Shown in pieces: positions 1 through 34,816 of a stretch of 64,000 nt of DNA. Under the pieces are notes generated by a model. It worked only from the letters and a program-made list of their open reading frames with translations. It made no database searches and was not told the origin of the DNA. The position numbers were made by a program, and so were the translations under genes. Numbering within the stretch: position 1 is the stretch's first letter; the number at the start of each line of letters is the position of its first letter. The stretch comes from an uncultured Gemmatimonadaceae bacterium (GTDB lineage Bacteria > Gemmatimonadota > Gemmatimonadetes > Gemmatimonadales > Gemmatimonadaceae), in NCBI GenBank assembly GCA_963773545.1, contig CAVZBP010000003.1:862609-926608 (forward strand), given 5' to 3'.

Positions 1-1414
1 CGCCCGTCGCGGTAGTGGGCGTCGGCGAGGTTCTTATGGAGTTGCGCAAGGGTGCTGTCCTCGTGCAGGCCGGCTTCCGCCGCGCGCTGCGCCCCGGCGT
101 GGTCCCCGCTGCGCTCGAGAATGACCGCCCGCGTGTTGTAGAGGACCGCGGCGTGGGGATGCAGGTCGCAGCCCTCTGTGGCCAGCGCCAGCGCGCGGTC
201 GAGATCGCCCGTCAGCGCCGCCGTGAGCGCCGCGTAGTGGAACCACGCGGCCGACGGCGGCTGGCGTCCCCAGAGCGCGCGCGCCGACGCGAGGACGCGG
301 TCGGCCGTCTCGGTGTCGCCGCGCTTGAGCGCGAGCACGCCCAGGGACGTGCGGACGCGCGCATCGTCCCCGCCGCCACGCTGGAGCGCCTCCTCCAGCG
401 CCCGTTGCGCATCCGCATAGCGACCGAGCTGTTCGAGCGCGTACCCCAGGTTGTGGAACACCGCCGGACGCGCGCCCGCTTGCGCCCCCGCCAGTTCGAG
501 GAGTTCCACCGCCTCGTCCCACTGGTGGCGGCGCATCGCGACCAGCGCCAGATAGAAGCGGGCCTGCACATCCCCGTCGCGCAGCTCGATCACCCGGCGA
601 AATTCGCGCAACGCCTCGTCCAGCATGCCCGTCTTGTAGAACGCCACGCCCAGGTTGCGGTGCTCCTCCACCCGCGCTTCCTTCACCGTGGCGTCCGCCG
701 GCTTGGACTTGCCCACGCGCTGCAGGAAGCCCGCCGACACGAGCCCATAGAGCGCCTTCGCAACGGAGAACTCCGCCAGCCCGGACGCGTCGACGAGCGC
801 GGTGACGTCGCGCTCGCCGTCCACCAACGGAAGCACCTGCTCCTGCTCCGGCGTGAGTGGCGCGTCGCTGTGGGCCACCCGCTCGCGATCGACACCGAAG
901 ATGAGATCGAAGCTCGGAATCTTCTTCTCGATCAGGCTCCATTCGTCCACCCGCCGCGCGCCCTCCAGCAGCAGCGCGTCGGGGCTGATCGACACCACGA
1001 AGTCGCGGGCGTCGGGGCGCACCTCCGCATCGAAGCTGAACGTGCCCTGCGTCCAGGTGAACAGGTAGTAGACCGCCTCCTCGATCTGGACGCGGATGTA
1101 CTGGTGCAGCTCCTCACGCGACAAGATCTCGCGCTCGATGAGAATCTCACCGAGCCGCATGTCACGGTGGGTGTTCTGCATCTGCACCGCCTCGTCGAGC
1201 TCCTGCTGTGTGATGACCCCGTTCTTCACCAGGACGTCGCCCAACCGATCGCGGCGATTGACGATCGACGCGTACGAGATGCGGCCCCGATCGAAGTAGA
1301 CGTAGCCGAAGCTGCCCCGGTCCGCCACGCTGAGGCATCCGGTCTTCTGCCCCATGGACAGGAGCTGGAGCACGTCGGGGAGACTGGCCTCGCGGAGGCT
1401 GCCCTTGATGGCCA
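1..1414 (-). CDS. DUF4388 domain + TPR repeat protein (partial; C-terminus beyond left window edge)
   Basis: Minus-strand ORF absent from the track because it has no stop inside the window. My translation from ATG at ~1414 begins MAIKGSLREASLPDVLQLLSMGQKTGCLSV..., which fits the DUF4388 consensus (as I recall Pfam PF14332); downstream are TPR-like helices. It is a paralog of the 5702..6847 protein. The start abuts the stop of the upstream DnaA-like gene. Confidence 0.75.
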
Positions 1415-3346
1415 TTAGCGCATCTCCTCGCTGGCCAAACCGCTCAGCTCGGGCCACTCCCACACCACCTTCTCGCGATCGAGAAAGAACGCGTCGACCC
1501 CCACCGCGCCCTCGGCGAGCGTGGGCGCGGCGGCAAGCGTGGTGCCTTCCAGCTCGGCCTGCGCGAAGGCAGGAGTAATGGCGACATCCGAGATCGCCGC
1601 GGCCTGCCGCAGCCGCGCGACCGTGCACAGCAATTCGGCCACGCTCGCGGTGGGGCGCGCGGCGAGGTAGGTGATCAGTTCTTCGTCCGGCGCCGCGTCG
1701 TCGCTGGCCAGCGCGCGCGCGAGAACGCGCGTGCGCAACTCGCGATCGGGCGCGCGGATCTCGACCACCAGCCCGCCGCCAAACCGGGAGCGGAGGCGCT
1801 CGTCCACTCCGTCCAACGCCTTGGGCGGTCGGTCGCCCGCGAGGACGATCTGCTTCCCATCGGCGTACAAGCTGTTGAACAGGTGAAACAGCTCCTCCTG
1901 CGCGCGTTCCGTTCCGGCACAATCCTGCACGTCGTCCAGCAGCAACGCGTCCACGTCGCGATAGCGCGCGCGCCACCGTTCGATCGCGCCCTCCTGCAGG
2001 GCCGCGATCAGCTCCTCCACGAACTGACCAGCCGCGAGGCACGCCACGCGCATGGCGCCGCCACGGGTCGCCACCAGCTCGCTCGCCATGGAGTGGATGA
2101 GGTGCGATTTGCCCACGCCCGCCGGCCCGTGGATGTAGAGCGGGTTGTACTTGCGCCCGGGTTCTTCCACCACCTCATCCGCGGCGTGCACGGCGAGCTG
2201 ATTGGAGGGACCGACCTCCAGGGTGGCGCGGGCGAACTCGGCCCTCGGCTCCGGCCACGCCGACCTCCCGGACACCAGGCGCGCCACCGTCTCCTCCGCT
2301 TCATCCACCCGATCGGGATCGCGCATCAGCTCGCTGCGCGCGAGCGACTCATCCAGCCCCTCGACGTCCGCGGACAGCCGCCGCAACCGGTCGACATCGT
2401 GCTCGAAGTGCGCGAGCAGGTCGTCGACGCCCGGATCCTCTGCGCGCTCGAGCGCCTGCTCCAGGCGATCCACGCGGTAGCCCAGCTGCTGCCATTCGGT
2501 GATGGCCTCGCCCACCCGCGCGCGCCAGGGCGCGATGTTCTCGGCCACGGCGCCGGCCAGCTCGTGCAGGAAGCTCGAGAACTCGTCTCCCACCGACGCA
2601 CTCACCGCCGGGGTGAGTGTCTTACTCGCGTCCAGGCGCTCACCGAGCAACGCCCGCACGTTTCCGCGCGTCACCCGCTGCTGTCCGAGTGTGGAGCAGG
2701 CGACGAGCCGATTGAGCGCGCCTTGCAGTTCGCGCACGTTGCTGAACCCGAGTCGCGCCACCTCCTCGACGACGCCCGGCTCGAACTCCACGCTGCGCTC
2801 CTGACACTTGCGGCGCAGGATCGCCACGCGCGTTTCGTAGTCGGGTGGGGCGATGTCGACGATCAGGCCGCCGGAAAAACGCGTGATGAGGCGCTCGTCG
2901 AGCTCGGCGATCTCCGCCGGCGGCCGGTCGCTCGTGAGCACGACCTGGCGACCGGTCCGCTGCAACGCGTTGAACAGGCGCAGCATCTCACTCTGCGTCT
3001 CGCGATGCCCGGCGAGGAACTGCACATCGTCCAATAGCAGCATGTCAATGGTGTCGAAGCGCTGCTTGAAACCGTCGCTCCGGCCGGCCGAGATCGCCTC
3101 ATGCAGTTGTTCCACGAACTCGTCGAGCGTGGCGTAGTAGATCGTCAGCTCGGGCGTCAACTGGTGGGCCATCTGTCCGATGGCCGTCAACAGGTGCGTC
3201 TTGCCGAGCCCCGACCCGCTGTACAGAAACAACGGGTTGTACGCCGCCCCCGGTGCGTGCGCGACCGCGTTCGCCGCCGCCACCGCCAACCGATTGGCGG
3301 CGCCGACCACGAAATTCTCGAACCGGTAGCGCTCGTCGAGACTCAC
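1415..3346 (-). CDS. tandem DnaA-like AAA+ ATPase domain protein (two DnaA domain-III-like modules; no DnaA N-terminal domain and no DNA-binding domain IV)
   Basis: 643 aa. The N-terminus FENFVVGAANRLAVAAANAVAHAPGAAYNPLFLYSGSGLGKTHLL matches the DnaA/Hda domain III signature with a Walker A motif. A second copy sits near residue 380: NQLAVHAADEVVEEPGRKYNPLYIHGPAGVGKSHLIHSM. Both have Walker B-like LLLDDVQ motifs. The start overlaps the mglA stop (GTGA). Confidence 0.8.
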   Translation of the reverse strand: MSLDERYRFENFVVGAANRLAVAAANAVAHAPGAAYNPLFLYSGSGLGKTHLLTAIGQMAHQLTPELTIYYATLDEFVEQLHEAISAGRSDGFKQRFDTIDMLLLDDVQFLAGHRETQSEMLRLFNALQRTGRQVVLTSDRPPAEIAELDERLITRFSGGLIVDIAPPDYETRVAILRRKCQERSVEFEPGVVEEVARLGFSNVRELQGALNRLVACSTLGQQRVTRGNVRALLGERLDASKTLTPAVSASVGDEFSSFLHELAGAVAENIAPWRARVGEAITEWQQLGYRVDRLEQALERAEDPGVDDLLAHFEHDVDRLRRLSADVEGLDESLARSELMRDPDRVDEAEETVARLVSGRSAWPEPRAEFARATLEVGPSNQLAVHAADEVVEEPGRKYNPLYIHGPAGVGKSHLIHSMASELVATRGGAMRVACLAAGQFVEELIAALQEGAIERWRARYRDVDALLLDDVQDCAGTERAQEELFHLFNSLYADGKQIVLAGDRPPKALDGVDERLRSRFGGGLVVEIRAPDRELRTRVLARALASDDAAPDEELITYLAARPTASVAELLCTVARLRQAAAISDVAITPAFAQAELEGTTLAAAPTLAEGAVGVDAFFLDREKVVWEWPELSGLASEEMR

Positions 3347-3960
3347 CGGGCCAGCGCCTCCGTGACGGGGGCGTTGGCGCTCAGACGCTTCAGCACGAAC
3401 TCCGAGATGCCGCGCAACGTCTCGAACACCCCGGTGCCGTGCAGCGCATCGGCGGCAAAGGAAGGAACCTCGCGGAAGTTCAGTGCGTCCTCGAGCTCCG
3501 GCACGTCCAGAATGAGATCCGGCGGGAGATCGCGCTTGTTGTACTGGATCACGAGCGGAATGCCACGCACGTCCACACCCTGCTCCGCGAGGTTGGCGTG
3601 CAAGTCCTGCATGCTCTCAATGTTTTCGTCCCGCTGCCGTGTCTGACTGTCAGCCACGAACACCACGCCATCCGCACCCTGCAGCACGAGCTTGCGCGTG
3701 GTGTGATAGTAGACCTGTCCCGGGACCGTGTAGAGTTGCAGGCGCGTGGTGAATCCCGAGATTGCCCCCAGGTCGAGCGGCAGGAAGTCGAAGAACAGGG
3801 TCCGGTCCGTCTGCGTGGCCAGCGACACCATGTTGCCGCGGCGTGCGTCCGGCACCCGTTGATAGATGTAGTGCAAGTTGGTCGTCTTGCCCGACCGCCC
3901 TGGGCCGTAGTAGACGATCTTGCAGGTGATCTCGCGGGTGGCGTAGTTGACGAGCGACAC
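3343..3960 (-). CDS. mglA: MglA, Ras-like small GTPase (mutual gliding motility protein A family)
   Basis: 205 aa. The sequence is near-collinear with M. xanthus MglA as I recall it. It has a P-loop YYGPGRSGKTT, the MglA-specific switch-II TVPGQ (in place of DxxGQ), VFVADSQ, and NKRD. The start is GTG, 7 nt after the mglB TAA stop. Confidence 0.9.
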   Translation of the reverse strand: MSLVNYATREITCKIVYYGPGRSGKTTNLHYIYQRVPDARRGNMVSLATQTDRTLFFDFLPLDLGAISGFTTRLQLYTVPGQVYYHTTRKLVLQGADGVVFVADSQTRQRDENIESMQDLHANLAEQGVDVRGIPLVIQYNKRDLPPDLILDVPELEDALNFREVPSFAADALHGTGVFETLRGISEFVLKRLSANAPVTEALAR

Positions 3961-3967
3961 GGCGGGC

Positions 3968-4477
3968 TTAGGGAGAGGGTGGCAAGGGACGGCCGCTCAC
4001 GTCGAGCCGAGGGGCCCGTCCGAAGAGCGCCGCGAGACTGCGATCAAGCTCGCGCTCGAAGTCAGCAGCGAGCGTGGGCGCGGGGGTCGCGGCGCCGGGT
4101 GATGCGGCGGCCAGGCGCTCGCGGAATTCGCGGAAGTACAGCTGCACCAGCCCCAGCGAACTCGCGCGATCGAACACGGCCAGCAACACATACCGTTCGT
4201 GCGCGGTGGGCACGTCGGCCATGAAGATTTGCCGCTCGCGGCCGGCGTGGTGCAGTTCTCCAAACGGCACGCCGCCCACCTCGCGCCCCAGCGCGCCGGC
4301 GGAGGCCGAGATACCGGCGGCGAGTGCGCATGCGGCCATGACGTCCACCGCCCGCGTGAACCCGTGCTGCCCCAGCACCTGCCCGCTGGGATGCAACAGC
4401 AGGGCGAACAGGATGTTCGCCTCTTCCACGAACGGGCGCAGCGGCGCCTCGACCCAGTCCGCCGCGACGGTCGTCAC
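3968..4477 (-). CDS. mglB: MglB, roadblock/LC7 domain GAP for MglA
   Basis: This is the C-terminal 170 aa of track ORF 3968..4840. The start is the GTG of VTTVAADWVEAPL..., which overlaps the TGA of the upstream roadblock gene (GTGA). The core FTRAVDVMAACALAAGISASAGALGREVGGVPFGELHHAGRERQIFMADVPTAHERYVLLAVFDRASSLGLVQLYF aligns with the MglB roadblock fold and its conserved xLGLVxL motif. Confidence 0.75.
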   Translation of the reverse strand: MTTVAADWVEAPLRPFVEEANILFALLLHPSGQVLGQHGFTRAVDVMAACALAAGISASAGALGREVGGVPFGELHHAGRERQIFMADVPTAHERYVLLAVFDRASSLGLVQLYFREFRERLAAASPGAATPAPTLAADFERELDRSLAALFGRAPRLDVSGRPLPPSP

Positions 4478-4822
4478 GCGAGCGCTCCGGCCGCACGCAG
4501 CATGGTGGAGCGGATGAGCCCCACGTTCGCGCCCGTTTCGGCCAGGACCGCGAGCACCAGTTCGCCGTGGCCGAGCACGCACAGAATGCCCGCGCGACGC
4601 GTCGAGCCGGAGAAAGGACACGGCGCCGAGCCCCGCCGCGCCGCTGGCCCATCGTGAGCGGCGATGCAGCGCCGCAGCCAGTGCGGCCAGCGCCGGTCCG
4701 TCCACGCGCTCCTGCAGCAGGGCGTCGACCACGATGCCATCCTCCTCCCCGGCCACGAGGCAGCCGAGGACGCCGCGATGCCGCGCCAGCGGCTCGAGCA
4801 GGGTGGCAAAGGCCGATTTCAT
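4474..4822 (-). pseudogene. MglB-like roadblock/LC7 paralog interrupted by a single-base frameshift (or a sequencing error in a GGG run)
   Basis: The N-terminal part, MKSAFATLLEPLARHRGVLGCLVAGEEDGIVVDALLQERVDGPALAALAAALHRRSRWASGAAGLGAVSFLRLDASRG, is in the frame of ORF 3968..4840. The C-terminal part, ILCVLGHGELVLAVLAETGANVGLIRSTMLRAAGALA*, is in the frame of ORF 4474..4809. The joined sequence gives a clean roadblock domain: F-x8-L-x3-VG-x4-VLVV...LGLVR. The shift maps to about 4589-4594, one extra nucleotide in a GGG run. The ATG overlaps the stop of the upstream TPR-roadblock gene (ATGA). Confidence 0.55.
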
Positions 4823-5709
4823 GCGTCCGCTCCCAGCCAATCAGTCGCTCGCGCACGGCACCGCTCCAGGAGGCGCCGCACATACCCTAACGGGGTGTCG
4901 CGCGACGACAGCGTGACCAGCAGCGCCCCTTCTGCTACTGGCGCCAGCGCCACTGCCGCCTCATCGGTTTCGCACACCACGAGGTGCCACTCGCCCAGCG
5001 CGAGGTGCTTGACTGCACGTTCGGCTTCGTCGCGCACCCCTGACAATTCGACGCCGACTTCCTGGGACGCGTCACGCCCGTCCATCGTGGGATACTGCCC
5101 CGCCGCGACGAGCCCATCGGCGTCGAGCAGCACCACGGCATGGGCGCCGCCCGCCACGAGGTCGGCAAACAACTCGCGCGCGTCGCCCATGGGCGACGGG
5201 TGGCCATTCTCGGCAGCAGCGCCATGCCCGTTCACCGCCACCCACGCGTTTCCGCCGCCGTCGGCCGGTGGCGGACCGTTCCCGGGCAGCGCACCCGCTT
5301 CCTTGCCGTCGCTGCCCCGCCGCACCATGGCGAGCGCGGTGGCGATCGACTCGTCGTCCGGCTCCATCGACGCCGCCTCGGCGAGCAAGCGCTCGGCCGC
5401 ACGGACGTCGCCTTGCTTGAAGAGGATGTAACCGAGCCCCTTGCGCGCTCCCAGGTGCGTCGGGGCAAGGCGCAGCACCGTTTCCCACGCCTCGCGCGCG
5501 CGGTCGAGCGCGCCGCGATCCACGCAGACGCGCGCCAGGAGATCGTGCGCCTCCGGGCTCGCCTCGTGGCGCTGGACGCCGCGCTCGGCGACCTTGAGCG
5601 CCACGTCCAGATCCGCGCGGCGCCGCAGCGCTTCCGCCAGACGCAGGTAGACCGGGCTGCCGGGATCACGCGCCAGCTCATCGCTCAATCGGCGGATCTC
5701 GTCAGCCAT
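4819..5709 (-). CDS. TPR repeat protein with C-terminal roadblock/LC7-like domain
   Basis: 296 aa. The N-terminal half is TPR-like (LRLAEALRRRADLDVALKVAERGVQRHEASPEAHDLLARVCV...). The C-terminal roughly 110 aa, AVVLLDADGLVAAGQYP...LALGEWHLVVCETDEAAVALAPVAEGALLVTLSSRDTPLGYVRRLLE, has the roadblock pattern. The ATG overlaps the stop of the DUF4388 gene (ATGGCTGA). Confidence 0.7.
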   Translation of the reverse strand: MADEIRRLSDELARDPGSPVYLRLAEALRRRADLDVALKVAERGVQRHEASPEAHDLLARVCVDRGALDRAREAWETVLRLAPTHLGARKGLGYILFKQGDVRAAERLLAEAASMEPDDESIATALAMVRRGSDGKEAGALPGNGPPPADGGGNAWVAVNGHGAAAENGHPSPMGDARELFADLVAGGAHAVVLLDADGLVAAGQYPTMDGRDASQEVGVELSGVRDEAERAVKHLALGEWHLVVCETDEAAVALAPVAEGALLVTLSSRDTPLGYVRRLLERCRARATDWLGADA

Positions 5710-6847
5710 CGCTGTGCTCCGTGAGCAGCGTACGCAGGCGGCCCGCGGCGTCGGCGGCCGCGCGGACGCGCTGCGCGTCGGGGGCCGCCGGCATCATGCG
5801 CAGATAGCGGTTCCAGCTATTGAGCGCCTCCTCGAACTGCCCGCGCGCGGCGGCCGCGTAGCCAAGCTCGAGGTGCACATCCGCGTTAAGCGTGTCGAGC
5901 TGACGCGCGCGGTGCAACTCCTCCACCGCGTCTCCGTGACGGCCGGCACGCGCCATGGCGCGCGCCAGCGTGAGTCGCGCCTCGGCCGACTGAGGGTCGG
6001 CCACGATGGCCTGGCGCGCCGCCATCATCGCGCCCTCCGCGTCACCGGCGCGCAACGCCCGCGTGGCCTGCTCCAGATGCGGCTCGGCATCGCTCGCGAT
6101 GCCGCCGCGCGCCTGCGCCGCGCCGTCCGGCTCGAACAGCTCCACCACGCCCGTGGAGAGCAGGCCATAGACGATGCGCGCCACCTCGAATTCGCTGCGC
6201 GCCAGATTCGCGGCAATGGCGCGCAGATCGCGGCTGCCATCGATCTCGGCGAGGACCGCCCACTCGTTGGGGAGCAGATCGAGCAGCGTGGGATGGTCGT
6301 CGCTCACCGGGGCGAGCACCGGAACGACACCCAGGTGACGGACCCGTCCCTCGATCCGCGACCATTCGTCGATCCGCCGCGCGCCTTCCATGAGCAGCGA
6401 TTCGGTGGAGATGCGGCTCATCGCCTCGGCGGGGATGTCGCCGAGCTGTCCCTCCTCGAACGAGAAGTATCCCTCGCTCCACGACGTGAGCTCGAAGACC
6501 ACTTCTTCCACCTGGAAGCGCACCTGCCGCTCCAATTCGCGTGGCGTAATCGCCCGCATCGCGATCAGCACTTCTCCCAGCTTGCGCGTGTCGCCACGCT
6601 CCTGCTGCTGGCGCGCGCGGAGCAGATCGCCCTCCGCGATGCGGCCCGAGCGCACGAGCAACTGGCCCAGCGGATGCGGGTTGCTCCGGATGGACGCGTA
6701 CACGACAGCCCCGCCGTCGAAGTACACGGTGCCTTGATTGTCACGCAGCGCGGACGTCACGGTGAGCGTGCCGGTCTTCCGACTCAGGTCGAGCAACTGG
6801 AACACGTCGTGGATGCCCAGTTCGCGGAGCGGTCCCTCGATCGCCAC
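5702..6847 (-). CDS. DUF4388 domain + TPR repeat protein
   Basis: The true start is probably a GTG (V58 of track ORF 5702..7018). It is preceded by AGGAGG and sits 2 nt after the TGA of the upstream TPR gene. The N-terminus VAIEGPLRELGIHDVFQLLDLSRKTGTLTVTSALRDNQGTVYFDGGAVVYA fits DUF4388. A middle region is conserved with the left-edge paralog, and the C-terminus is TPR. The track residues upstream of V58 are R/P-rich junk. Confidence 0.75.
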   Translation of the reverse strand: MAIEGPLRELGIHDVFQLLDLSRKTGTLTVTSALRDNQGTVYFDGGAVVYASIRSNPHPLGQLLVRSGRIAEGDLLRARQQQERGDTRKLGEVLIAMRAITPRELERQVRFQVEEVVFELTSWSEGYFSFEEGQLGDIPAEAMSRISTESLLMEGARRIDEWSRIEGRVRHLGVVPVLAPVSDDHPTLLDLLPNEWAVLAEIDGSRDLRAIAANLARSEFEVARIVYGLLSTGVVELFEPDGAAQARGGIASDAEPHLEQATRALRAGDAEGAMMAARQAIVADPQSAEARLTLARAMARAGRHGDAVEELHRARQLDTLNADVHLELGYAAAARGQFEEALNSWNRYLRMMPAAPDAQRVRAAADAAGRLRTLLTEHSDG

Positions 6848-6849
6848 GG

Positions 6850-9558
6850 TCAGTCCTCCTCGCGCGCGAAGATGCGCAGCAGGTCCGCGGCGGTGCGGGC
6901 GTCGCGGCGTGCACGCCGCGCGAACTCGCAGCCGGGATCGATCTCGACCACGCGGTTCCAGCGGGCGATCGCCTCGCGGTAGCGATGCCGGCGCATCATG
7001 AGCACGCCCATGACCCACAGCGCGCCCGCGTGGTCGGGCGACAGGCGCAGGATGCGCACGGCGGCGATCATCGCATCCTCGTGACGCCGGAGGTCCACCA
7101 GGATCTCGGCCACCAGCAGCAACGCGTCGAGGTTGTACGGATCCCGTTTGAGCAGATCGACGAGCGGCAGCAGTGCGTCGCGCAGCCGGTTGAAGCGGCG
7201 CCGCACCTCCGCCAGGGCCATCGTGGCCTGCACGTACGTGGGCACGGCGTCCAGCGCCGCGATCAGCGCGGCCTCGGCGCCGTCACCGTCCCCTTCGTCG
7301 GCCAGCAGCGTCGCAAGCTCGTACTGGACGGCGGCGAATTCGTGGTCGAGTTGGAGCGCGCCGCGGTAGGCCTCCTTGGCTCCTTCCACGTCGCCGAGGG
7401 CGCGCGCGACATCACCCACCTGCTTGAGGACGTCGGCACGATCGGGGGCCAGGCGCCGCGCCTCGAGCAACAGTCCATACGCGGAATCCGCGTCACCCGA
7501 CTCGGCTCGCGCACGGGCCACCAGCAGCATGGTCTCGACGCCCGACGGGTCCGCGGCCAGCAGCTGCTCGGCCACGCCGCGCGCTTCGGGGTATCGTCCC
7601 AGGCGGAGCAACGCCATCGTCTCGCCACTCATCGCGCGCGGGGAAATGCCGTTCATGCTGCGCGCCGTGCGGTAGCGCTCCAGCGCCTCGCCAAAGAGCC
7701 CCTGACGCGAGAAGATGTCGCCCTGCAGGATGAGCCCTTCAATGGCGTCGGCCCCGCGCGCGAGCACGCGACTCACCTCGGCGGCCGCGCGATCCAGCAG
7801 CCCCTTGGCCAGGTAGTCGGCCGCCATGGAATACGGGCTGACGCCGGCGCGCGGCACGGGACGGGGAAGCGGGGGCTCCTCGCGGAGTTCGCCGAACAGC
7901 GTGTCGAGCGAACTGGCATCGAACGCGAACGCCGGGACCTCGCTTCCGTCGGGCATGCGCTCGTCGCCACTCAGCGCCGGCGTCACCGACAGGTCGGGAT
8001 CCTCGTACTCCACGTCGATGGCCAGCTCGAACTTCTGCGGCACATAGTACGGGTCGAGGTCGAGCGCGCGCCGCGTCTCACGCAGCGCGCCGTCGAGATC
8101 GCCCAGATTGGACAGCGTGAAGCTCAGATTGTAGTGCGCCTCGGCGTACTGCGGCCGTGCCTCGATGGCTCGGCCAAAGGCGTTGCGCGCCTCGGCAAAT
8201 TCCTTGAACTCGGAGAGCACGAGGCCGATGCCGTTCCAGGCCACCGGATGTTCGGGCGCGGTCCGCAGCACCTGCTCGTACGCTTCTCGTCCCAGCGCGA
8301 GCTGACCCGCACGGACGAGCAGGAGCGCGAGGTTGAGCCACCCTTTGAGAAACCCGGGCTGCGCGGCGAGCGCCGTGCGGAAGGCAGTGACCGCGTCCTC
8401 CATGCGGCCCGTCTGCGACAGCGCCACGCCGAGGTTGTTCTGCGCCAAGACGTACGCCGGATCGAGCGCCAGGGCGCGCTCGTAGCTCGTGATGGCCTCG
8501 TCCAGCGCGCCGCTCTGGTGCAGCGCCACACCACGTTCGCACCACAGCTTGGGGCTGTCCGGCTGGAGGGCCAAGACGCGGTCATAGACCTCCACCGCCT
8601 GGCGCGGCTCGCGCCGGAACAGGTGCACCTCGGCCATGGCCTGGAGCACGAGCGGTTCGTCTTCACCGCGCTCGAGCGCCAGACGGTATTCGCCCAGCGC
8701 TTCGGCGTAGTAGCCTTTTTGCCGGAAGGCGAGCCCCAGATTGTAATGGGCGAGCGCGCCGCCCGCGGCCACATGCATCGCACGCCGATCCCGTTCCGCG
8801 CGCTCGGGGACCAGCTCCTCGTAGGTGGCCGCGTTGTAGCGGTCGAGGGACAGGTTCGCCTGCGCGCGCGAGAGCGAGGGGTTGAGCTGCATGGCGCGCG
8901 CGGTTGCTTCGCGTGCTTCCTCGTGCCGTCCCATGTCGCCCAGAACGAACCCCTTGAGATAGTGCGCGTCGGGGTTGTCCGGCCCGAGCTGGATGGACCG
9001 CTCCAGCGCGGCGAGAGCCTCGTCATTCAGCCCGCGATTGTAGCACACCTCGCCAATGGAGAAGTGCACGAGCGGACTGGCGGGATCGCACGCGAGAGCG
9101 CGCTCGAACCACTGCTGCGACACCTCGAGGTTGCCGTTGGCCTTCTCAGCGAGCCCCAGCTGTACCAGCGCCCCGACATCGTTGGGATGGCGCTCGAGCA
9201 GCCGCGTGAACTCGGCGACGGCGTCCGCCGTCTCGCCCAGCAGCGCGTACGCGCGCCCCAGTTCCCAGTGCGCATCCCGGTCATCGGGATGCTGGCGGAC
9301 GCGCTCCTGCAGCTCGGCGACGCGGCGGTGATAGAACCCGGTCCGGAAGTACGCGATCTCGAGATTGCGCTGGGCCACCTGCATCTTGGGGTCCAGCTCG
9401 AGCGCGCGCGAGAACGCGGCGACGGCTTCCTCGGAGAGTCCCTTGTTGTAGTACAGGACGCCGAGGTTGTTATGCGCCCCCGCATCGGACGGATCGATCC
9501 GGCGGGCGAACGACCGCAGGATCTCGAGGTCACGTTCGGATGCGAGGGACTGCGCCAT
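6850..9558 (-). CDS. large TPR repeat protein (~20 TPR units)
   Basis: Track ORF 6850..10188 with the N-terminal 210 aa discarded as an R/H-rich antisense artefact. The start is taken at MAQSLASERDLEILRSF, 3 nt after the cheC-like stop. Canonical TPR motifs occur throughout (AHNNLGVLYYNKGLSEEAVAAFSRALELDP..., AHYNLGLAFRQKGYYAEALGEYRLAL...). Confidence 0.75.
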   Translation of the reverse strand: MAQSLASERDLEILRSFARRIDPSDAGAHNNLGVLYYNKGLSEEAVAAFSRALELDPKMQVAQRNLEIAYFRTGFYHRRVAELQERVRQHPDDRDAHWELGRAYALLGETADAVAEFTRLLERHPNDVGALVQLGLAEKANGNLEVSQQWFERALACDPASPLVHFSIGEVCYNRGLNDEALAALERSIQLGPDNPDAHYLKGFVLGDMGRHEEAREATARAMQLNPSLSRAQANLSLDRYNAATYEELVPERAERDRRAMHVAAGGALAHYNLGLAFRQKGYYAEALGEYRLALERGEDEPLVLQAMAEVHLFRREPRQAVEVYDRVLALQPDSPKLWCERGVALHQSGALDEAITSYERALALDPAYVLAQNNLGVALSQTGRMEDAVTAFRTALAAQPGFLKGWLNLALLLVRAGQLALGREAYEQVLRTAPEHPVAWNGIGLVLSEFKEFAEARNAFGRAIEARPQYAEAHYNLSFTLSNLGDLDGALRETRRALDLDPYYVPQKFELAIDVEYEDPDLSVTPALSGDERMPDGSEVPAFAFDASSLDTLFGELREEPPLPRPVPRAGVSPYSMAADYLAKGLLDRAAAEVSRVLARGADAIEGLILQGDIFSRQGLFGEALERYRTARSMNGISPRAMSGETMALLRLGRYPEARGVAEQLLAADPSGVETMLLVARARAESGDADSAYGLLLEARRLAPDRADVLKQVGDVARALGDVEGAKEAYRGALQLDHEFAAVQYELATLLADEGDGDGAEAALIAALDAVPTYVQATMALAEVRRRFNRLRDALLPLVDLLKRDPYNLDALLLVAEILVDLRRHEDAMIAAVRILRLSPDHAGALWVMGVLMMRRHRYREAIARWNRVVEIDPGCEFARRARRDARTAADLLRIFAREED

Positions 9559-9563
9559 CGGAA

Positions 9564-10184
9564 CTACTCCACCCGGACGGCGCGCAGGATCACTCGCAGC
9601 GAGGCCAGGTCGGGAAGCAGCAGGAAGAAGCCGCGCAGACGCTCCCCGGCTTCCTGCAGCAGGAACTCCGTTTCCACGGCGAACACGCAGTCGCGATCGG
9701 TGCCGAACTGCAGGTACGCCGTGCTCAGCACGGCCGCGGACATGTCCACCGCCAGGCTGGGCGGCGACGGCAGCAGCATGAGGCCCAGAAACTCGCTGAG
9801 CGCGTTCATGTACGCGCCACTCAGGATGTTCCCTGCTTCCTTGATGGCCGACTGCTCCAACTCTCCCAGGTCGACGCTCTCCGACGGCGGCCGGCGCAGC
9901 ATGAGCGACGCCAGGCGTTTGGCCGTTGGATGCGGGAAGACGAGCAACGTGCGGCCGGTGAGGTCGCCGAGCATGTGCATGAGCACGGCCGCGATCGGTT
10001 CCTCGCTGTCGGCGATCTGCGTGGGCAGCTCCTCCAGCGAGCAGATCGTGATCGTGGGCACGTTGATCATGATCCGGCTGGCCGTCATGTGGGACAGCGC
10101 CGTGGCCGCGTGACCCGCGCCGATGTTCGCGACCTCGCGCAGCGCATCGAGCTGGATCGCCTTGAGGGACAGTAGATCGTTCAT
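9564..10184 (-). CDS. CheC/CheX-family chemotaxis phosphatase-like protein
   Basis: LDALREVANIGAGHAATALSHMT matches the CheC signature D/E-x-L-x-E-x-x-N-I-x-x-G-x-A-A-T-A-L-S. A second half-site is IKEAGNILSGAYMNALSEFLG. The start is assigned to M11 (MNDLL); the alternative 10214 would overlap cheA by 20 nt. Confidence 0.7.
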   Translation of the reverse strand: MNDLLSLKAIQLDALREVANIGAGHAATALSHMTASRIMINVPTITICSLEELPTQIADSEEPIAAVLMHMLGDLTGRTLLVFPHPTAKRLASLMLRRPPSESVDLGELEQSAIKEAGNILSGAYMNALSEFLGLMLLPSPPSLAVDMSAAVLSTAYLQFGTDRDCVFAVETEFLLQEAGERLRGFFLLLPDLASLRVILRAVRVE

Positions 10185-10194
10185 GCACACCCCA

Positions 10195-12144
10195 TTAGAG
10201 GAGGGACCCGACATCCACGATCAGCGCCGGCGCCCCGTCGGACAGAATCGTCGCCCCGCTGAACAGCGCCGTGCTCTCGCGGACGCCGTCGAACTGCTTC
10301 ACCACGATGTCCTGCTGTCCGGCCAGGTCGTCCACCACGAGCCCCGCGCGGCGATCGCCGATTTCCAGCACGATCACGTGCTGCCGGAGATCGGGGCGCG
10401 GCGCGAGCTGCACGAGCGTGCGGAACGGAATGAGCGGGAGCACCTCGTCGCGCAGGACGAGGACATCGCGCCCCTTCACGCTCCGCACAGACGACGACTG
10501 CAGGTCGACCGTTTCATTGATGTGCGTCATCGGCACCGCGTACGTCTCGTCGTCCACGCGCGCCAGGAGCGCGCGGACGATGGCCAGCGTGAGCGGGAGG
10601 CGAACGGTGACGGTCGTTCCCGCTCCGGGGGTGGAGCGGATCTCCACCGTGCCGCCCATGGACCGCACGCGGTTGTGCACGGCGTCGATCCCCACCCCGC
10701 GGCCGGACAGATCCGACACCTGGTCGGCGGTGGAGAAGCCCGGACGTGCGATGAGCCGCACCAATTCCTCGTCGGTCAGCTCGCCGCGCCCGGCATCCAC
10801 CAGTCCCAGATCACGCGCCTTTTCGAGGACACGGTCGGCGGCGATGCCCTGCCCGTCGTCCGCCACACGGATGACCACCGATGACCGCTCGCGCGATGCG
10901 CTCAACGTCAGCCGCCCCAGCGGCGGCTTGCCGCACGCGGTGCGCGTGTCCGGCATCTCGATGCCGTGGTCGATCGCGTTCCGCAGCAGGTGCACGATGG
11001 GATCACCGATCTCGTCCAGCATGGAGCGATCGAGTTCGATGTCCTTGCCGATCACCGAAAACTCGATCTGTTTTCCCAGACCGCGCGCGGCGTCACGGAC
11101 CAGACGCGGAAAACGATCGAACACGTGCGACACCGGCACCATCCGGCACAGCATGATCTCGTCCTGCAGCTCCGTGATCAGCCGCGACGCCTGCGCCAGC
11201 GTGTCATCGAGCACCGCGTCCTCGGTGCCCGCGCAGAGCTGCAGCAGTCGTCCGCGGGCGATGACCAGCTCGCCGATCATGTTCATGAGCGCATCCAGCC
11301 GCTCGAGATCGATCCGCACATGCCGATGGACGCGGGAACGCGTACCGTCGGCCGGTGTGGGGGCAGCCGGTGCGGGGGCCGCTTCGCTCGTGACCTCGAG
11401 TTGCTCCACATCGCCCATTCCGCGCAGCGCTTCGTCGATCGCGGCGCGGCTCGCTGCCGTGTCGAGACGGAGCGCGAATTCCCGATCGAACTCCTCCGCC
11501 TGCAGCGCGTCGACCGGCGGGATGACGGAGCTCACGGTGCCCAGCGTCTCGGCCTTGCGCACGATCAACAACGCGCGCGCGCCGCGCAGCGCGGTCGCGG
11601 CCGCCAGACGCACGCGTACGAGCCAGCGCGAAGCCGCCGGGGCCGCGGGGCCAGACGCCGGCGCGGGCGCGTCGGGGAAGGTGCCGCGCGCACCAGGCGC
11701 CGCCGCGTGCGCTTGCGCCACCGCTGCCGCGTACTCGGCCGTGGCGGACGGAAGGTCGTCGTCAGGCGCGCCGCCCAGCGTGCGGAGATGTTCCACCAGC
11801 GCGGCGACGTCCACCTCCTGCGCCCGCCCCTGCACCGACAGCTCGACCGCCGCTTCCAGGGCGTCGGCCGCGGCAAACAGCACGTCGAGGATCTCCGGCG
11901 TGACGAGCTGCGCGCCCTTGCGGACGCGGTCGAGCAGCGTCTCCAGCTCGTGCGTCAGCTCGGCGACGGCGGTATAGCCCATCGTCGCGCTCATCCCCTT
12001 CACCGTGTGCACGGCACGGAAAATCCCCCCCACAGGCTCGGCCGCGCCGGGGGCGCGCTCGAGCTCCAGGAGGAGGTGATTGATCGCCGAAAGATGCTCT
12101 CGGCTCTCAGTCAGGAAGAGGTCGGCGTAGCGGGAGATATCCAT
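10195..12144 (-). CDS. cheA: chemotaxis histidine kinase CheA (HPt - dimerisation - HATPase_c - CheW-like; no receiver domain)
   Basis: The start is at MDISRYADLFLTESREHLSAINHLLLELE, an HPt domain with the phosphorylatable His in AVHTVKGMSATMG. It has HATPase motifs (HLLRNAIDHGIE, DDGQGI, GRGVGIDAV) and a C-terminal CheW-like domain. The first 28 track residues are junk. Confidence 0.9.
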   Translation of the reverse strand: MDISRYADLFLTESREHLSAINHLLLELERAPGAAEPVGGIFRAVHTVKGMSATMGYTAVAELTHELETLLDRVRKGAQLVTPEILDVLFAAADALEAAVELSVQGRAQEVDVAALVEHLRTLGGAPDDDLPSATAEYAAAVAQAHAAAPGARGTFPDAPAPASGPAAPAASRWLVRVRLAAATALRGARALLIVRKAETLGTVSSVIPPVDALQAEEFDREFALRLDTAASRAAIDEALRGMGDVEQLEVTSEAAPAPAAPTPADGTRSRVHRHVRIDLERLDALMNMIGELVIARGRLLQLCAGTEDAVLDDTLAQASRLITELQDEIMLCRMVPVSHVFDRFPRLVRDAARGLGKQIEFSVIGKDIELDRSMLDEIGDPIVHLLRNAIDHGIEMPDTRTACGKPPLGRLTLSASRERSSVVIRVADDGQGIAADRVLEKARDLGLVDAGRGELTDEELVRLIARPGFSTADQVSDLSGRGVGIDAVHNRVRSMGGTVEIRSTPGAGTTVTVRLPLTLAIVRALLARVDDETYAVPMTHINETVDLQSSSVRSVKGRDVLVLRDEVLPLIPFRTLVQLAPRPDLRQHVIVLEIGDRRAGLVVDDLAGQQDIVVKQFDGVRESTALFSGATILSDGAPALIVDVGSLL

Positions 12145-12193
12145 GGTTGGCGGAGGCGTGAAATGCCCGGCCCCGGCGGAGCGCGCGGGGAGG

Positions 12194-12556
12194 TTAGCCC
12201 AGCACCCGCTGCACCGCTTCCAGCACACGACTCGGCTGGAACGGCTTCACGACAAAATCCTTGGCACCAGCCTGGATGGCTTCCACCACGAGCGCCTGCT
12301 GCCCCATGGCACTGCACATGAGGATCTTTGCGTTTGCGTCGAAGCGCGTGATCTCACGCACCGCGTCAATGCCGCCCATGTCGGGCATGACGATGTCCAT
12401 CGTGACCAGATCGGGGCGGAGTTGCCGGTACTTCTCGACCGCCTGCAGGCCCGTCTCGGCTTCGCCCACGATCTCGAAGCCCGACTGCTGCAGGATGTCG
12501 CCGATCATGGTGCGCATGAAGATCGCGTCGTCGCAGATCAGAACGGTGTGACTCAA
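12194..12556 (-). CDS. cheY: CheY-like single-domain response regulator
   Basis: 120 aa, VLICDDAIFMRTMIGDIL...LVTMDIVMPDMGGID...AKDFVVKPF. The start is TTG, preceded by GGAGGG 5-6 nt upstream. Confidence 0.9.
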   Translation of the reverse strand: MSHTVLICDDAIFMRTMIGDILQQSGFEIVGEAETGLQAVEKYRQLRPDLVTMDIVMPDMGGIDAVREITRFDANAKILMCSAMGQQALVVEAIQAGAKDFVVKPFQPSRVLEAVQRVLG

Positions 12557-12562
12557 CCTGCC

Positions 12563-12568
12563 CCTCCG
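12563..12568 (-). promoter_or_regulatory. Shine-Dalgarno (GGAGG) for cheY TTG start
   Basis: The mRNA reads ...aaccGGAGGggcaggTTGagtcac.... Coordinates are +-1. Confidence 0.45.
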
Positions 12569-12569
12569 G

Positions 12570-13049
12570 TTAGATCAGGACCTGCCTGATGAGTGCCTCG
12601 ATGTCCAACACCACGATCACCTGCTCCTCCAACTGCAGCAACGCGCGCACGGGGCCGTCGGGAACCATGTCGGCGCCTGCCTCCTCGGCCTCTGCCGTCA
12701 CATCGTGCACGTCCAACACCTCGTCCACGGCCAGCCCCACCCGCTTGCCTCCATGCTCCGCCATGAGCACCGAGGCCGACTCGCGGGCCGTGGATGCGAC
12801 GCCGAGCCGGACGCCCAAGTCCAGCACGGTCACGATCGAGCCGCGAACATTCACCAGCCCATCCACCCACGGCGGCGCGCCCGGCAACCGGGTGGCGCTG
12901 CGCCACGGGATGATCTCGGAAACCGTATCGACTTCCAGGCCGTACGACCGCCCATCCACGCGAAAGACCACAATGCGTCGCGGGCGGCGCTCGCCCACGA
13001 CGCCGCTCCCTTCGTGATCAGAGATCTCGAGTGTAGAAACCGAGGTCAT
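12570..13049 (-). CDS. cheW: chemotaxis coupling protein CheW
   Basis: RRIVVFRVDGRSYGLEVDTVSEII...VDGLVNVRGSIVTVLDLGVRLG is a typical CheW fold. The start is taken at MTSVSTLEISDHEG; the first 17 track residues are junk. It overlaps the 3' end of rluD by about 30 nt. Confidence 0.85.
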   Translation of the reverse strand: MTSVSTLEISDHEGSGVVGERRPRRIVVFRVDGRSYGLEVDTVSEIIPWRSATRLPGAPPWVDGLVNVRGSIVTVLDLGVRLGVASTARESASVLMAEHGGKRVGLAVDEVLDVHDVTAEAEEAGADMVPDGPVRALLQLEEQVIVVLDIEALIRQVLI

Positions 13050-14019
13050 CCAGCGGATCCGCGTGTGTGAACATGACGTCCGGGCCAGCCACCGCGGCAA
13101 GGCTCCCCACGAGATCCGTGGGCAGCTCCGACCGCACCTCGATCCGCGCTCCCGTTGCCGGATGCGGGAAGATCAGCCAGGCCGCGTGCAGGAAGTGCCG
13201 GCGCGGCGGCAGTGCCGCCAACCGACGCCCCCCTCCGCCACCATAGACATCGTCTCCGACTACCGGATGACCGATCGACGCGAGATGCACCCGAATCTGA
13301 TGCGTCCGCCCGGTGTGGAGAGCGGCACGAAGGAGGTCCGTTGAGTCAAACCGTGCGAGGCGAACGAAGTCCGTTCGTGCTCCTCTTCCGCTACTGACGA
13401 TTGCCATACGCTTTCGGTCTCGCGGGTCCCGGCCTACCGGTCGGTCGACGGTCACCCGATCCCCATCCAGATGCCCCCACACCAGGGCGGCATAACGTCG
13501 GCTGATGCGTCGCGCCGCGAGGGCGGCCCCCAGCCGGCGGTGCGCCAGATCCGTCTTGGCCACCAAGATCAGTCCGGAGGTATCCTTGTCCAGGCGATGG
13601 ACGATCCCGGGCCGCTCGGCGGCACCACCCTCGGCCAGCGGGCCGCCGCGACCGCGCAGCGCGTTGACCAGCGTGCCCGACCAGTGCCCCGGGGCAGGAT
13701 GGACCACCATCCCTGCCGGCTTGTTTACCACGAGAACGTGCTCGTCCTCGTAGCGGACGTCGAGCGCGATCTGTTCGGCCACCACCGCGCGGTGGACCGG
13801 GGGTGGAAGGCGCACCGTCACGGTGACACCCGCGCGCGGCCGCGATCCAGCCTTCTCGTGCACCCCATCCACCAGCACGCACCCGGTGGCGATGAGCGTG
13901 GCCGCCCGAGAGCGCGAAAGGTCCAGCCCCCGGGCCACCAGCGTGTCCAGTCGCTCCCGGTTGCCGTGCGGGACGGCGAAGACGCGCTGCTCGCCGCCCG
14001 CGTCAGCCGCGCTCACCAT
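13018..14019 (-). CDS. rluD: 23S rRNA pseudouridine synthase, RluA/RluD family
   Basis: S4-like N-terminus, catalytic HRLDKDTSGLILVAKT, and HTGRTHQIRVHLASIGHPVVGD. Confidence 0.85.
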   Translation of the reverse strand: MVSAADAGGEQRVFAVPHGNRERLDTLVARGLDLSRSRAATLIATGCVLVDGVHEKAGSRPRAGVTVTVRLPPPVHRAVVAEQIALDVRYEDEHVLVVNKPAGMVVHPAPGHWSGTLVNALRGRGGPLAEGGAAERPGIVHRLDKDTSGLILVAKTDLAHRRLGAALAARRISRRYAALVWGHLDGDRVTVDRPVGRDPRDRKRMAIVSSGRGARTDFVRLARFDSTDLLRAALHTGRTHQIRVHLASIGHPVVGDDVYGGGGGRRLAALPPRRHFLHAAWLIFPHPATGARIEVRSELPTDLVGSLAAVAGPDVMFTHADPLDDLGFYTRDL

Positions 14020-14097
14020 GCGCGGCGTGGCGGTCGCGGAGGTGCGACTGGGACCGGGAGGTCGCGCGTGCAGGCGGCGAGCCGTGCGCGCGCGGCG

Positions 14098-15061: not shown

Positions 15062-15063
15062 CG

Positions 15064-19172: not shown

Positions 19173-19179
19173 CCCCACA

Positions 19180-20681: not shown

Positions 20682-20692
20682 AACATGCTAAT

Positions 20693-34805: not shown

Positions 34806-34816
34806 AGTGGGGCGCC

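Follow-up and report, generated by a model that had tools for sequence, protein, structure and literature searches.

A Gemmatimonadota gene cluster that may link a chemosensory phosphorelay to an MglA polarity switch through a tandem DnaA-derived ATPase

The window analyzed here is a stretch of 64,000 nucleotides from an uncultured Gemmatimonadaceae bacterium (assembly GCA_963773545.1, contig CAVZBP010000003.1, positions 862,609 to 926,608). At positions 1-13049 it carries 12 co-directional genes on the minus strand, in which the chemosensory genes cheW, cheY, cheA and cheC are strung together with genes for the polarity GTPase MglA, an MglB-type protein, roadblock and TPR proteins, two PATAN-TPR proteins and a tandem DnaA-derived ATPase that I hereafter call DnaA2. 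The reading that I favour, tentatively and at slightly less than an even chance, is that this cluster wires a chemosensory phosphorelay to an MglA polarity switch, on a hub composed of DnaA2 and its PATAN-TPR partner, and that the arrangement is specific to the Gemmatimonadota. The genes are listed below in gene order, with their window coordinates, strand and the gap or overlap separating each from the next gene.

12570-13049, minus strand: cheW, 13-nucleotide gap to cheY
12194-12556, minus strand: cheY, 49-nucleotide gap to cheA
10195-12144, minus strand: cheA, 10-nucleotide gap to cheC
9564-10184, minus strand: cheC, 5-nucleotide gap to TPR902
6850-9558, minus strand: TPR902, 2-nucleotide gap to PATAN-TPR1
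5702-6847, minus strand: PATAN-TPR1, 8-nucleotide overlap (ATGGCTGA) with TPR-roadblock
4819-5709, minus strand: TPR-roadblock, ATGA overlap with mglB'
4474-4822, minus strand: mglB' (frameshifted roadblock gene), GTGA overlap with mglB
3968-4477, minus strand: mglB, 7-nucleotide gap to mglA
3343-3960, minus strand: mglA, GTGA overlap with DnaA2
1415-3346, minus strand: DnaA2, TAATG overlap with PATAN-TPR2
1-1415, minus strand: PATAN-TPR2, cut by the window edge

A first reading of this DNA, made from its letters alone (the sequence-only reading), had announced thirteen co-directional genes, although it listed twelve itself; the operon-like string on one strand stands, with twelve members. It had also described the junctions as overlaps or gaps of 3-7 nucleotides, with only cheY and cheA about 50 nucleotides apart. 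The ATGA and GTGA overlaps and the wide cheY-cheA gap are as described, but gaps of 10 and 13 nucleotides occur as well. All frames are backed by codon-position GC, with a third-position GC of about 0.85-0.9, and by the same measure minus-strand coding runs unbroken from the left window edge to beyond 19 kb, in a window whose G+C content is about 69%. The gene overlaps suggest a single transcript. No promoter-like or terminator-like site above shuffled expectation was found in a scan of positions 1-19000, and scanning the window for Rfam families and tRNAs gave no riboswitch or RNA gene. The co-directional rluD lies immediately upstream, its stop codon (13018) overlapping the start of cheW, and is one of a series of upstream neighbours on the same strand (rluD, lspA, a dksA/traR-type gene, ileS, a nucleoside phosphorylase gene, divIVA and yggS). 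At the other end the window edge cuts PATAN-TPR2, and the window holds only part of the string.

The cluster proteins were mapped onto 39 Gemmatimonadota loci, designated below by L and a number. Gene order and overlap lengths are repeated in about 25 Gemmatimonadota loci that were fetched, even where protein identity falls to 40-50%, and persist across Gemmatimonadales and Longimicrobiales. The mglB'-mglB overlap is 4 nucleotides in 22/23 loci, that of DnaA2 with PATAN-TPR2 1 nucleotide in 23/33, that of PATAN-TPR2 with cheR 4 nucleotides in 14/18, and that of PATAN-TPR1 with TPR-roadblock 8 nucleotides in 16/19. The order from cheA through mglA to the dnaA-like gene, for which a neighbourhood search had been proposed, co-occurs in those loci. 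The closest assembly, GCA_035701265.1 (L001), encodes proteins 83-99% identical to those of the window, in the same order and directly after rluD. It also provides what lies beyond the window edge: the rest of PATAN-TPR2, then cheR, cheD, cheB, cheW, cheW, a gene for a 343-residue TPR protein, a Peptidase_MA_2 gene, a further TPR gene and rsmH, the start of the cell-division cluster. Four types of cluster, and one locus that stands apart, can be told from gene content.

Type A (this window and many Gemmatimonadaceae/Gemmatimonadales): full set
Type B (Gemmatimonas species): same backbone, without TPR-roadblock, mglB' and mglB, and usually without cheR
Type C (Longimicrobiales and other lineages): only rluD, DnaA2, PATAN-TPR2 and Peptidase_MA_2, with a receiver-domain gene next in most loci
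Type D (L082-L084): rluD, cheY, cheA (498 residues), cheC, TPR903, PATAN, TPR-roadblock, roadblock, MglB, MglA, DnaA2, PATAN-TPR2, TPR, Peptidase_MA_2
L040 (one locus): cheWYAC, then directly a shortened DnaA2 and PATAN-TPR2

The type D variant is particularly informative. Its CheA (e.g. L083 2432-3928) is a 498-residue protein with the Hpt, P2, dimerisation and HATPase domains that lacks the P5/CheW-like domain, and no cheW, cheR, cheD or cheB is present in the three loci. It thus appears to be a CheA devoid of receptor coupling that has been kept with cheY and cheC; the type D MglA sequence is found on 22 contigs. From this gene content it follows that the relay travels with the polarity block and not with receptor coupling. 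In type B, MglA is only about 61% identical and carries a C-terminal extension of about 50 residues, and the first PATAN protein is without the helical MshEN-like insert (L014 8066-9977; L029 9204-9977). Type C clusters sit in the same FtsH...DivIVA-IleS backbone, and in one of them (L086) the last three genes overlap by 4 nucleotides. A Longimicrobiales contig (L028) carries TPR-roadblock, roadblock, mglB, mglA and DnaA2, which indicates that the link between the Mgl genes and DnaA2 is old within the phylum. The simplest reading of these gene contents is that DnaA2, PATAN-TPR2 and Peptidase_MA_2 would be a phylum-wide ancestral core, that the che and mgl blocks would have come to flank this core on both sides, and that the CheA-CheY-CheC relay would remain joined to the polarity block in clusters that have lost receptor coupling. 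The proposal that a Che kinase module is hard-wired to MglA/MglB, already made in the sequence-only reading, is strengthened by the phylum-wide order and overlaps and by the type D variant.

Several features of the surroundings were noted in the course of this comparison. A Peptidase_MA_2 protein always follows the cluster (L001 18048-19034; L086 13455-14480) and is possibly part of the core module; the L001 protein shows what appears to be a signal peptide, along with a membrane segment at the C-terminus and a charged tail, and in L086 the gene overlaps PATAN-TPR2 by 4 nucleotides and is followed by a gene for an NtrC-type sigma-54 activator. In the window, the backbone upstream of the cluster (13018-26410, minus strand) runs FtsH ... 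CdaA ... YggS, DivIVA, nucleoside phosphorylase, IleS, DksA/TraR-type zinc finger, LspA and RluD. The Longimicrobiales-type loci L085 and L086 share FtsH, CdaA, YggS, DivIVA, the phosphorylase, IleS and usually RluD, so the chromosomal position of the DnaA2 core is ancient. Some type A clusters contain an extra gene between cheB and the second cheW (L010 15920-16720; L013 6545-7345), which encodes a 266-residue ExeA/GspA/MshM-like AAA ATPase; its best NCBIfam match, the XrtA/PEP-CTERM-associated ATPase model (1.9e-55), is below the cut-off of that model.

The family assignments of the sequence-only reading (CheW, CheY, CheA, CheC, DUF4388, roadblock, MglA, MglB and DnaA-like) were borne out by hidden Markov model and solved-structure searches, and in particular these searches placed the MglA, roadblock and CheA proteins in their families. 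By their Pfam domains, the Che genes encode a chemosensory core: a CheA with P1, P3, P4 and P5 accompanied by CheW and CheY. CheA (649 residues) displays all five Pfam domains, in the order Hpt, P2, H-kinase_dim, HATPase_c and P5 (CheW-like), has no receiver domain, and matches NCBIfam CheA_Halo at 3.7e-143. CheY is a single-domain response regulator of 120 residues (Response_reg, 9e-31) whose closest solved relative is the CheY of Thermotoga maritima (1TMY, 7e-50). With 80-99% identity across loci it is better conserved than any other protein of the cluster. CheY and also MglA, for which identity within types A and D is about 80-95%, stand far above their neighbours in conservation. Judged by these profiles, CheY and CheA are canonical. 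CheW (Pfam CheW, 3e-31) is 159 residues long when started from the ATG at 13049, as is the orthologue called in L001; the GTG at 12998, preceded by a Shine-Dalgarno-like GGGAG, is an alternative start. CheC (206 residues) matches Pfam CheC at 1.6e-22 in two stretches and NCBIfam CheC_Thtogales at 9e-53. Its translation shows both D/S-x3-E-x2-N-x22-P active-site motifs, and it is predicted to be a CheY-P phosphatase. No chemoreceptor (MCP, methyl-accepting chemotaxis protein) gene is present in the window or in any orthologous locus.

The best NCBIfam matches of the block are CheA_Halo, CheY_Halo and CheC_Thtogales. Given the Thermotoga-like CheY, a CheA with P2 and no receiver, and a CheC (in relatives also a CheD), the Che genes resemble the flagellar (F1-like) systems of Thermotoga and Bacillus and not Frz, the Myxococcus chemosensory system with which the sequence-only reading had compared the arrangement.

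The MglA encoded by the cluster (205 residues) matches M. xanthus MglA (5YMX/6H17) at 2.4e-72 over residues 1-194 and T. thermophilus MglA (3T12) at 1.7e-65. MglA proteins are characterized by a GxxxxGKT P-loop, an intrinsic switch-I arginine and a TxxGQ motif in place of the Ras DxxGQ, residues whose roles are known from published MglA structures. Aligned to the M. xanthus protein, the cluster MglA displays the P-loop GPGRSGKT, the switch-I arginine in TDRTLFFDF, and TVPGQ, and is on this sequence evidence a bona fide group-1 MglA small Ras-like GTPase with intact catalytic residues. Its gene follows mglB after 7 nucleotides, a coupling that is kept in types A and D and absent in Gemmatimonas type B. 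MglB (169 residues) gave no Pfam match at an expectation value of 0.01. A phmmer search nevertheless aligned residues 16-151 with M. xanthus MglB (6IZW_B, 7e-11), and the T. thermophilus MglB (1J3W) matched at 8e-7. The NCBIfam MglB model scored 33 bits (4.8e-8) against an equivalog cut-off of 200 bits, and because its score falls below that cut-off the protein is, by sequence, a divergent homologue of the MglA GTPase-activating protein (GAP).

The gene preceding mglB, called mglB', had been read as a frameshifted mglB. The frameshift is real: DNA alignment with three intact orthologues reveals one extra base, CAT[T]CTG at about 4585-4586, and its removal restores a protein of 115 residues with a Robl_LC7 match at 1.6e-8, the length at which the gene is intact in L001 and in L082-L084. 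Gene decay was considered and rejected, as the remainder of the gene is intact and the difference is a single base, which points to a sequencing error or a very recent mutation. The name, by contrast, did not hold. The intact orthologue gave no significant match to MglB chains or structures, only a generic match to Pfam Robl_LC7, and the product is a roadblock/LC7 protein that is possibly an MglC-like partner. A third roadblock domain (Robl_LC7, 2.2e-9, residues 187-267) occurs in the 296-residue TPR-roadblock fusion, together with Pfam TPR models. TPR902, finally, is a protein of 902 residues made almost entirely of TPR repeats (TPR_2 at 9e-85 and many other TPR models), and occupies the same place in clusters of types A, B and D; it is a candidate for an effector of MglA-GTP or a scaffold. 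A FliM-like CheY-binding peptide at its N-terminus was entertained and dropped, the match by eye to LSQxEIDxLL being poor.

Two proteins of the cluster combine a PATAN domain, alias DUF4388, with TPR repeats. PATAN-TPR1 (381 residues) matches Pfam DUF4388 (PF14332) at 9.6e-32. PATAN-TPR2, of which the N-terminal 471 of about 540 residues lie in the window (the full-length orthologue in L001 has 540), matches it at 1.9e-39. No receiver domain (Response_reg) is found in either PATAN protein, both of which carry TPR instead, and their identification as PatA-type regulators was rejected for this lack of a fused receiver. PATAN-TPR2 displays two tandem 24-residue motifs of the form RLGxxLVxxGhIxxxxLxxxhxxQ (RLGDVLVKNGVI...Q and RLGEILIEREIL...Q), as do the MshEN cyclic di-GMP (c-di-GMP) receptors (MshE, PilB-type ATPases and NfrB), whose published consensus is a tandem 24-residue RLGxx(L/V/I)(L/V/I)xxG(L/V/I)(L/V/I)xxxxLxxxLxxQ (PMC5013675). 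It scores 48.9 bits on NCBIfam NF053729, whose cut-off is 38 bits. It departs from these receptors in three respects. The motif sits as an insert within a TPR-fused PATAN domain and not at the N-terminus of a secretion ATPase, the spacer has 6 residues instead of 5, and in this genome another residue takes the place of the glycine of the second motif. Types A, C and D retain the motif, type B has it in half-degenerate form, and L040 lacks it. On this motif evidence PATAN-TPR2 is a probable c-di-GMP receptor. In PATAN-TPR1 the corresponding motif is half-degenerate (HPLG... / RKLG...) and its score of 35.6 bits is below the same 38-bit cut-off.

DnaA2 is a protein of 643 residues in which Pfam detects Bac_DnaA, i.e. 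DnaA domain III, in two stretches (1e-107), but neither Bac_DnaA_C nor DnaA_N: domains I and IV are absent. It consists of a first module (1-235), a disordered segment (237-270), a helical linker domain (273-360), a second module (375-600) and a C-terminal tail. Module 1 matches domain III of B. subtilis DnaA (8BV3) at 7.6e-60 with about 43-50% identity. The AlphaFold model has a mean pLDDT of 84.6, and Foldseek superposes it on 8BV3 with a target-normalised TM-score of 0.94 and an rmsd of 1.9 Å; its pTM is 0.44, so that the relative orientation of the two modules is unreliable and no conclusion is drawn on their packing. Across 119 homologues, the Walker A, Walker B, sensor I, arginine finger and sensor II motifs of module 1 are invariant, and the residues that align with the single-stranded-DNA-binding H and B motifs of DnaA are largely retained. 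In module 2 only Walker B and the arginine finger are invariant, while the Walker A lysine is found in 106/119, the sensor I aspartate in 64/119 and the sensor II arginine in 31/119. This pattern of conservation indicates that module 1 is catalytically complete, and hence predicted to be active, and that module 2 is half-degenerate. The pairing of an active with a degenerate module is common in tandem AAA+ proteins.

DnaA2 therefore shares with DnaA and Hda the AAA+ domain-III fold and, in module 1, the whole set of nucleotide-binding and hydrolysis motifs with the arginine finger. It differs from them by having two modules, which a novel helical domain links, and a C-terminal tail that is conserved, by module 2, where sensor I varies and the sensor II arginine is usually missing, and by its motility/polarity context. 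NCBIfam gives 511 bits for DnaA and, summed over two stretches, 187 bits for Hda (cut-off 194.8 bits), and the N-terminus (MSLDERYRFENF) contains no Hda-type clamp-binding motif (QL[SP]LPL-like) in its sequence. Lacking domains I and IV and this motif, and having two modules instead of one, DnaA2 was not retained as a DnaA or Hda paralogue in the strict sense.

The last 23 or so residues of DnaA2 (window 1415-1490), preceded by a disordered stretch, are among the most conserved of the protein, with the consensus FLDxEKVxWDWPDVxGRAIEEFR. This tail looks like a docking peptide, possibly for a neighbouring TPR domain.

DnaA2 and MglA each have close homologues in large number (hundreds). Among the matches listed, the tandem-DnaA2 loci with a named phylum are all from Gemmatimonadota, and the named DnaA2 and MglA homologues are nearly all labelled Gemmatimonadaceae, Gemmatimonadales, Longimicrobiales or Gemmatimonadota; an MglA cluster under the label Anaerolineae (P0199) and a locus recorded only as "bacterium" (L010) are the two exceptions.

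How might these parts work together? Observed are the gene content, the protein families, the intact catalytic motifs, the gene order with its overlaps, the nesting of the blocks and a variant that lacks receptor-coupling genes. From here on I infer the protein-protein steps, and with them the identity of the organelle. The core operon would supply DnaA2, the PATAN-TPR2 scaffold with its MshEN-type motif, and a membrane-anchored Peptidase_MA_2 protein. In Gemmatimonadales this core would be translationally coupled to a chemosensory block (cheW, cheY, cheA, cheC; cheR, cheD, cheB, cheW, cheW) and to an MglA block (mglA, mglB, the second roadblock gene, TPR-roadblock, the 900-residue TPR gene and the second PATAN gene). 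CheA, under receptor control, would phosphorylate CheY, and CheC would reset it. CheY-P would be read in trans by the PATAN, TPR and roadblock adaptors; that free CheY-P could act on PATAN-TPR proteins is suggested by a Rosetta-stone argument, PATAN being fused to a receiver in the PatA-type regulators of cyanobacteria. The adaptors would modulate the MglB-type GAP complex and thereby the site at which MglA-GTP accumulates. MglA-GTP would in turn recruit the large TPR effector (TPR902) to one pole, and so determine which pole's motility organelle is active, be it type IV pili, as in the known PATAN and MglA systems, or a polar flagellum. The DnaA2/PATAN-TPR2 hub, lastly, may couple the switch to the ATP state, the c-di-GMP level, or pole or cell-cycle identity.

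Several observations are consistent with this scheme. Type C has the core alone in the same backbone, and elsewhere the che and mgl genes flank the DnaA2/PATAN-TPR2 pair on both sides. In Myxococcus, MglA and MglB set the leading and lagging poles, and Frz controls them via response regulators (PMC3441718, PMC4316618). PATAN is the output domain of the chemosensory PatA-type regulators and binds PilB1 and PilC; mglA and mglB genes often adjoin PATAN genes, and PATAN-CheY associations are known too. PATAN and TPR proteins are moreover among the candidate type IVa pilus (T4aP)-linked proteins considered with SopA in M. xanthus. Other observations weigh against the scheme. By similarity the Che module is of the flagellar F1-like kind, and CheY-P may act only on the flagellar motor, the embedded genes acting elsewhere. 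Gemmatimonas (type B) clusters are without MglB and roadblock genes, so that the GAP step cannot apply in cis there. DnaA2 and PATAN-TPR2 occur in type C without che or mgl genes nearby, which suggests that the primary function of the pair is independent of chemosensing. A chemoreceptor gene was not found in the cluster, and the single transcript, too, is deduced from gene overlaps.

A first alternative, the main rival though rather unlikely, is that the cluster is an ordinary flagellar chemotaxis operon in which the embedded Mgl, TPR, PATAN and DnaA2 proteins form a positioning or landmark system for the receptor array, the polar flagellum or both, by analogy with ParC/ParP or PpfA in che operons and FlhF/FlhG in flagellar operons. 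The nearest relative of CheY being the flagellar CheY of Thermotoga, and CheA, CheC and CheD being F1-type-like, speak for it, as does the adjacency of the DnaA2 core to divIVA and cell-division genes; GTPases and AAA+ ATPases, moreover, are switch types used for positioning. Cultured Gemmatimonas have a polar flagellum (PMC9862903), a single one in Gemmatimonas species, and CheA has been reported to be up-regulated along with the fli genes. Pfam annotation detects no flagellar or pilus genes in the remainder of the window, only housekeeping and metabolic genes. The variants fit this alternative poorly: type D, devoid of CheW, the CheA P5 domain and the adaptation enzymes, would have no array to position and is left unexplained, and type C keeps DnaA2 and PATAN-TPR2 with no che genes nearby. 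In addition, the known functions of PATAN and MglA concern type IV pilus motors, not flagella.

The second alternative, which I consider unlikely, places the DnaA2/PATAN-TPR2 pair in the regulation of replication or the cell cycle, as an Hda-like or DnaA-co-oligomerizing, c-di-GMP-responsive device to which the Che and Mgl proteins would couple pole and environment in asymmetrically dividing bacteria. In its favour are the derivation of both modules from DnaA domain III, the identity of module 1 to B. subtilis DnaA, its invariant motifs and largely kept H/B residues, the NCBIfam DnaA and Hda scores, and the c-di-GMP motif of PATAN-TPR2. So is the conserved chromosomal site, which immediately follows yggS-divIVA-ileS-rluD and, in types A and D, precedes rsmH-ftsL-ftsI by a short distance. 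Yet DnaA2 has neither domain IV, the part of DnaA that binds DnaA boxes, nor domain I, nor the N-terminal clamp-binding motif of Hda; the neighbourhood is one of motility and polarity, not of dnaN, oriC or other replication genes; and the similarity to DnaA may mean no more than that ATP-dependent oligomerisation is conserved. A bolder version, which I consider improbable, would make DnaA2 a c-di-GMP-gated, ATP-dependent oligomer that forms with PATAN-TPR2 a polar hub linking chemosensory/MglA signalling to DnaA, single-stranded DNA or the nucleoid. If it were true, motility direction, pole identity and replication initiation would be under one hard-wired machine, and DnaA2 would be a new regulator class exapted from the replication initiator.

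The flow of information could also be reversed, the MglA/TPR/PATAN/DnaA2 assembly serving as an input to CheA that replaces or supplements receptors, with CheY-P as the output to a motor. The type D CheA invites this idea, as with P5 absent and no CheW in the locus it would need a regulator other than an array, and the cluster proteins are its only conserved partners; a chemoreceptor gene is, besides, in no version of the cluster. But type A has the full receptor-coupling and adaptation set (three CheW, CheR, CheB and CheD), a CheA lacking P5 may simply run at basal activity, and no CheA is known to be regulated by MglA or PATAN proteins. I consider a reversed flow improbable. That independent che, mgl and DnaA-like operons are merely packed together, uncoupled, is hardly tenable: housekeeping genes (rluD, lspA, ileS) do abut the cluster on the same strand, so that co-orientation alone is uninformative, but the order and the 1-, 4- and 8-nucleotide overlaps survive in about 25 fetched loci whose proteins are 40-60% identical, the DnaA2/PATAN pair divides the che genes in two, with PATAN-TPR2 overlapping cheR by 4 nucleotides, and modules are gained and lost in blocks yet stay adjacent (types A to D).

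If a chemosensory phosphorelay does act on the MglA switch as favoured here, its closest parallel is the Frz/MglA system of Myxococcus xanthus, which likewise joins a CheA-type kinase pathway to a group-1 MglA with an MglB GAP. By architecture, the extra roadblock proteins of the cluster may be compared with MglC, and its large TPR protein with the MglA effector SgmX. The differences are substantial. In the cluster, the modules lie in one overlapping gene string; CheA has P2 and no fused receiver, and CheY is a single Thermotoga-like domain; CheC is present (CheD in relatives) and a FrzCD-like receptor is not; and there is a DnaA-derived ATPase, of which Frz has none. Among the cluster proteins, no homologue of RomR, RomX or RomY was identified. 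The label of Frz orthologue was rejected for want of a FrzE-type receiver-fused CheA, an FrzCD receptor and an FrzZ dual-receiver output. The logic known from Myxococcus is nonetheless that of a chemosensory input switching a GTPase polarity axis (PMC3441718, PMC4316618), with mglA not near the genes that code for the proteins it interacts with (PMC4316618).

In the cyanobacterial Tax/Pix systems (PatA-type, PATAN-REC), a chemosensory pathway is associated with PATAN proteins, as in the cluster, and movement takes its direction from the PATAN output, which binds the type IV pilus motor (PilB1, PilC). In the cluster, PATAN is fused to TPR and CheY is separate, MglA/MglB and DnaA2 are present, and the Che genes resemble the flagellar F1 class, not the type IV pilus class. 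By analogy, then, the cluster would work most like a Frz-to-Mgl circuit with a PATAN output, built from flagellar-type Che parts.

The architecture had been put forward as undescribed, and this needs one amendment. Group-1 MglA has been noted before in Gemmatimonadetes, and the neighbourhood 'PATAN>MglA>-PATAN>' of Gemmatimonas aurantiaca GAU_1409 is tabulated in the supplementary material of Wuichet & Sogaard-Andersen 2014, which also lists a separate mglB-mglA pair (GAU_1115) elsewhere in that genome. Compared by its tabulated pattern, GAU_1409 fits type B of other Gemmatimonas genomes, with an unnamed gene at the place of DnaA2. The entry is a three-gene pattern only, and the che flanks, the DnaA-like gene, the versions with MglB and roadblock genes, the core and type D are not described in it. 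In the literature no description was found of the whole ensemble, the embedding of che genes or the nested architecture, nor of the tandem DnaA-derived ATPase family, the c-di-GMP motif of its partner, or the variant without receptor-coupling genes. As far as that literature shows, one component family, DnaA2, is without precedent.

Apart from the cluster, a few other genes of the window were remarked upon. The CdaA (diadenylate cyclase) open reading frame (22717-24240) contains CdaA_N (251-328) and DAC (359-476) domains, and the approximately 240 arginine-rich residues in front of them are probably an over-extension of the frame in high-GC DNA and not a real domain. Genes for isocitrate lyase and malate synthase (glyoxylate shunt) are adjacent on the minus strand at 33495-36520. 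A GCS2-type glutamate-cysteine ligase gene lies about 1 kb from one for a DinB_2 and FGE-sulfatase protein (41807-45517), a pair that resembles EgtA/EgtB of ergothioneine synthesis. An open reading frame of 710 codons (56451-58583), with a COX2 periplasmic domain (83-152) followed by a full COX1 domain (175-625), appears to encode cytochrome oxidase subunits II and I as one fused protein.

In Myxococcus, the way in which a chemosensory pathway flips the MglA axis is still under study, because the proteins that connect the two are encoded at scattered places in the genome. The present cluster groups the Che pathway and the GTPase/GAP pair with the candidate connectors, namely two PATAN-TPR proteins, a TPR-roadblock protein, a second roadblock protein and a 900-residue TPR protein, and its natural deletion variants (types A to D) yield a short list of testable pairwise interactions. 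DnaA2 represents a large family, restricted to Gemmatimonadota among the matches listed, in which the AAA+ module of DnaA, now doubled, has been put to use in a genomic context other than replication. Its partner protein is probably a c-di-GMP receptor. To find the initiator fold reused in this way was unexpected, and polarity and the cell cycle may be linked through it. Cultured Gemmatimonas carry type B, which makes bench study possible, and the cluster offers a natural handle on the wiring of chemosensing to cell polarity.

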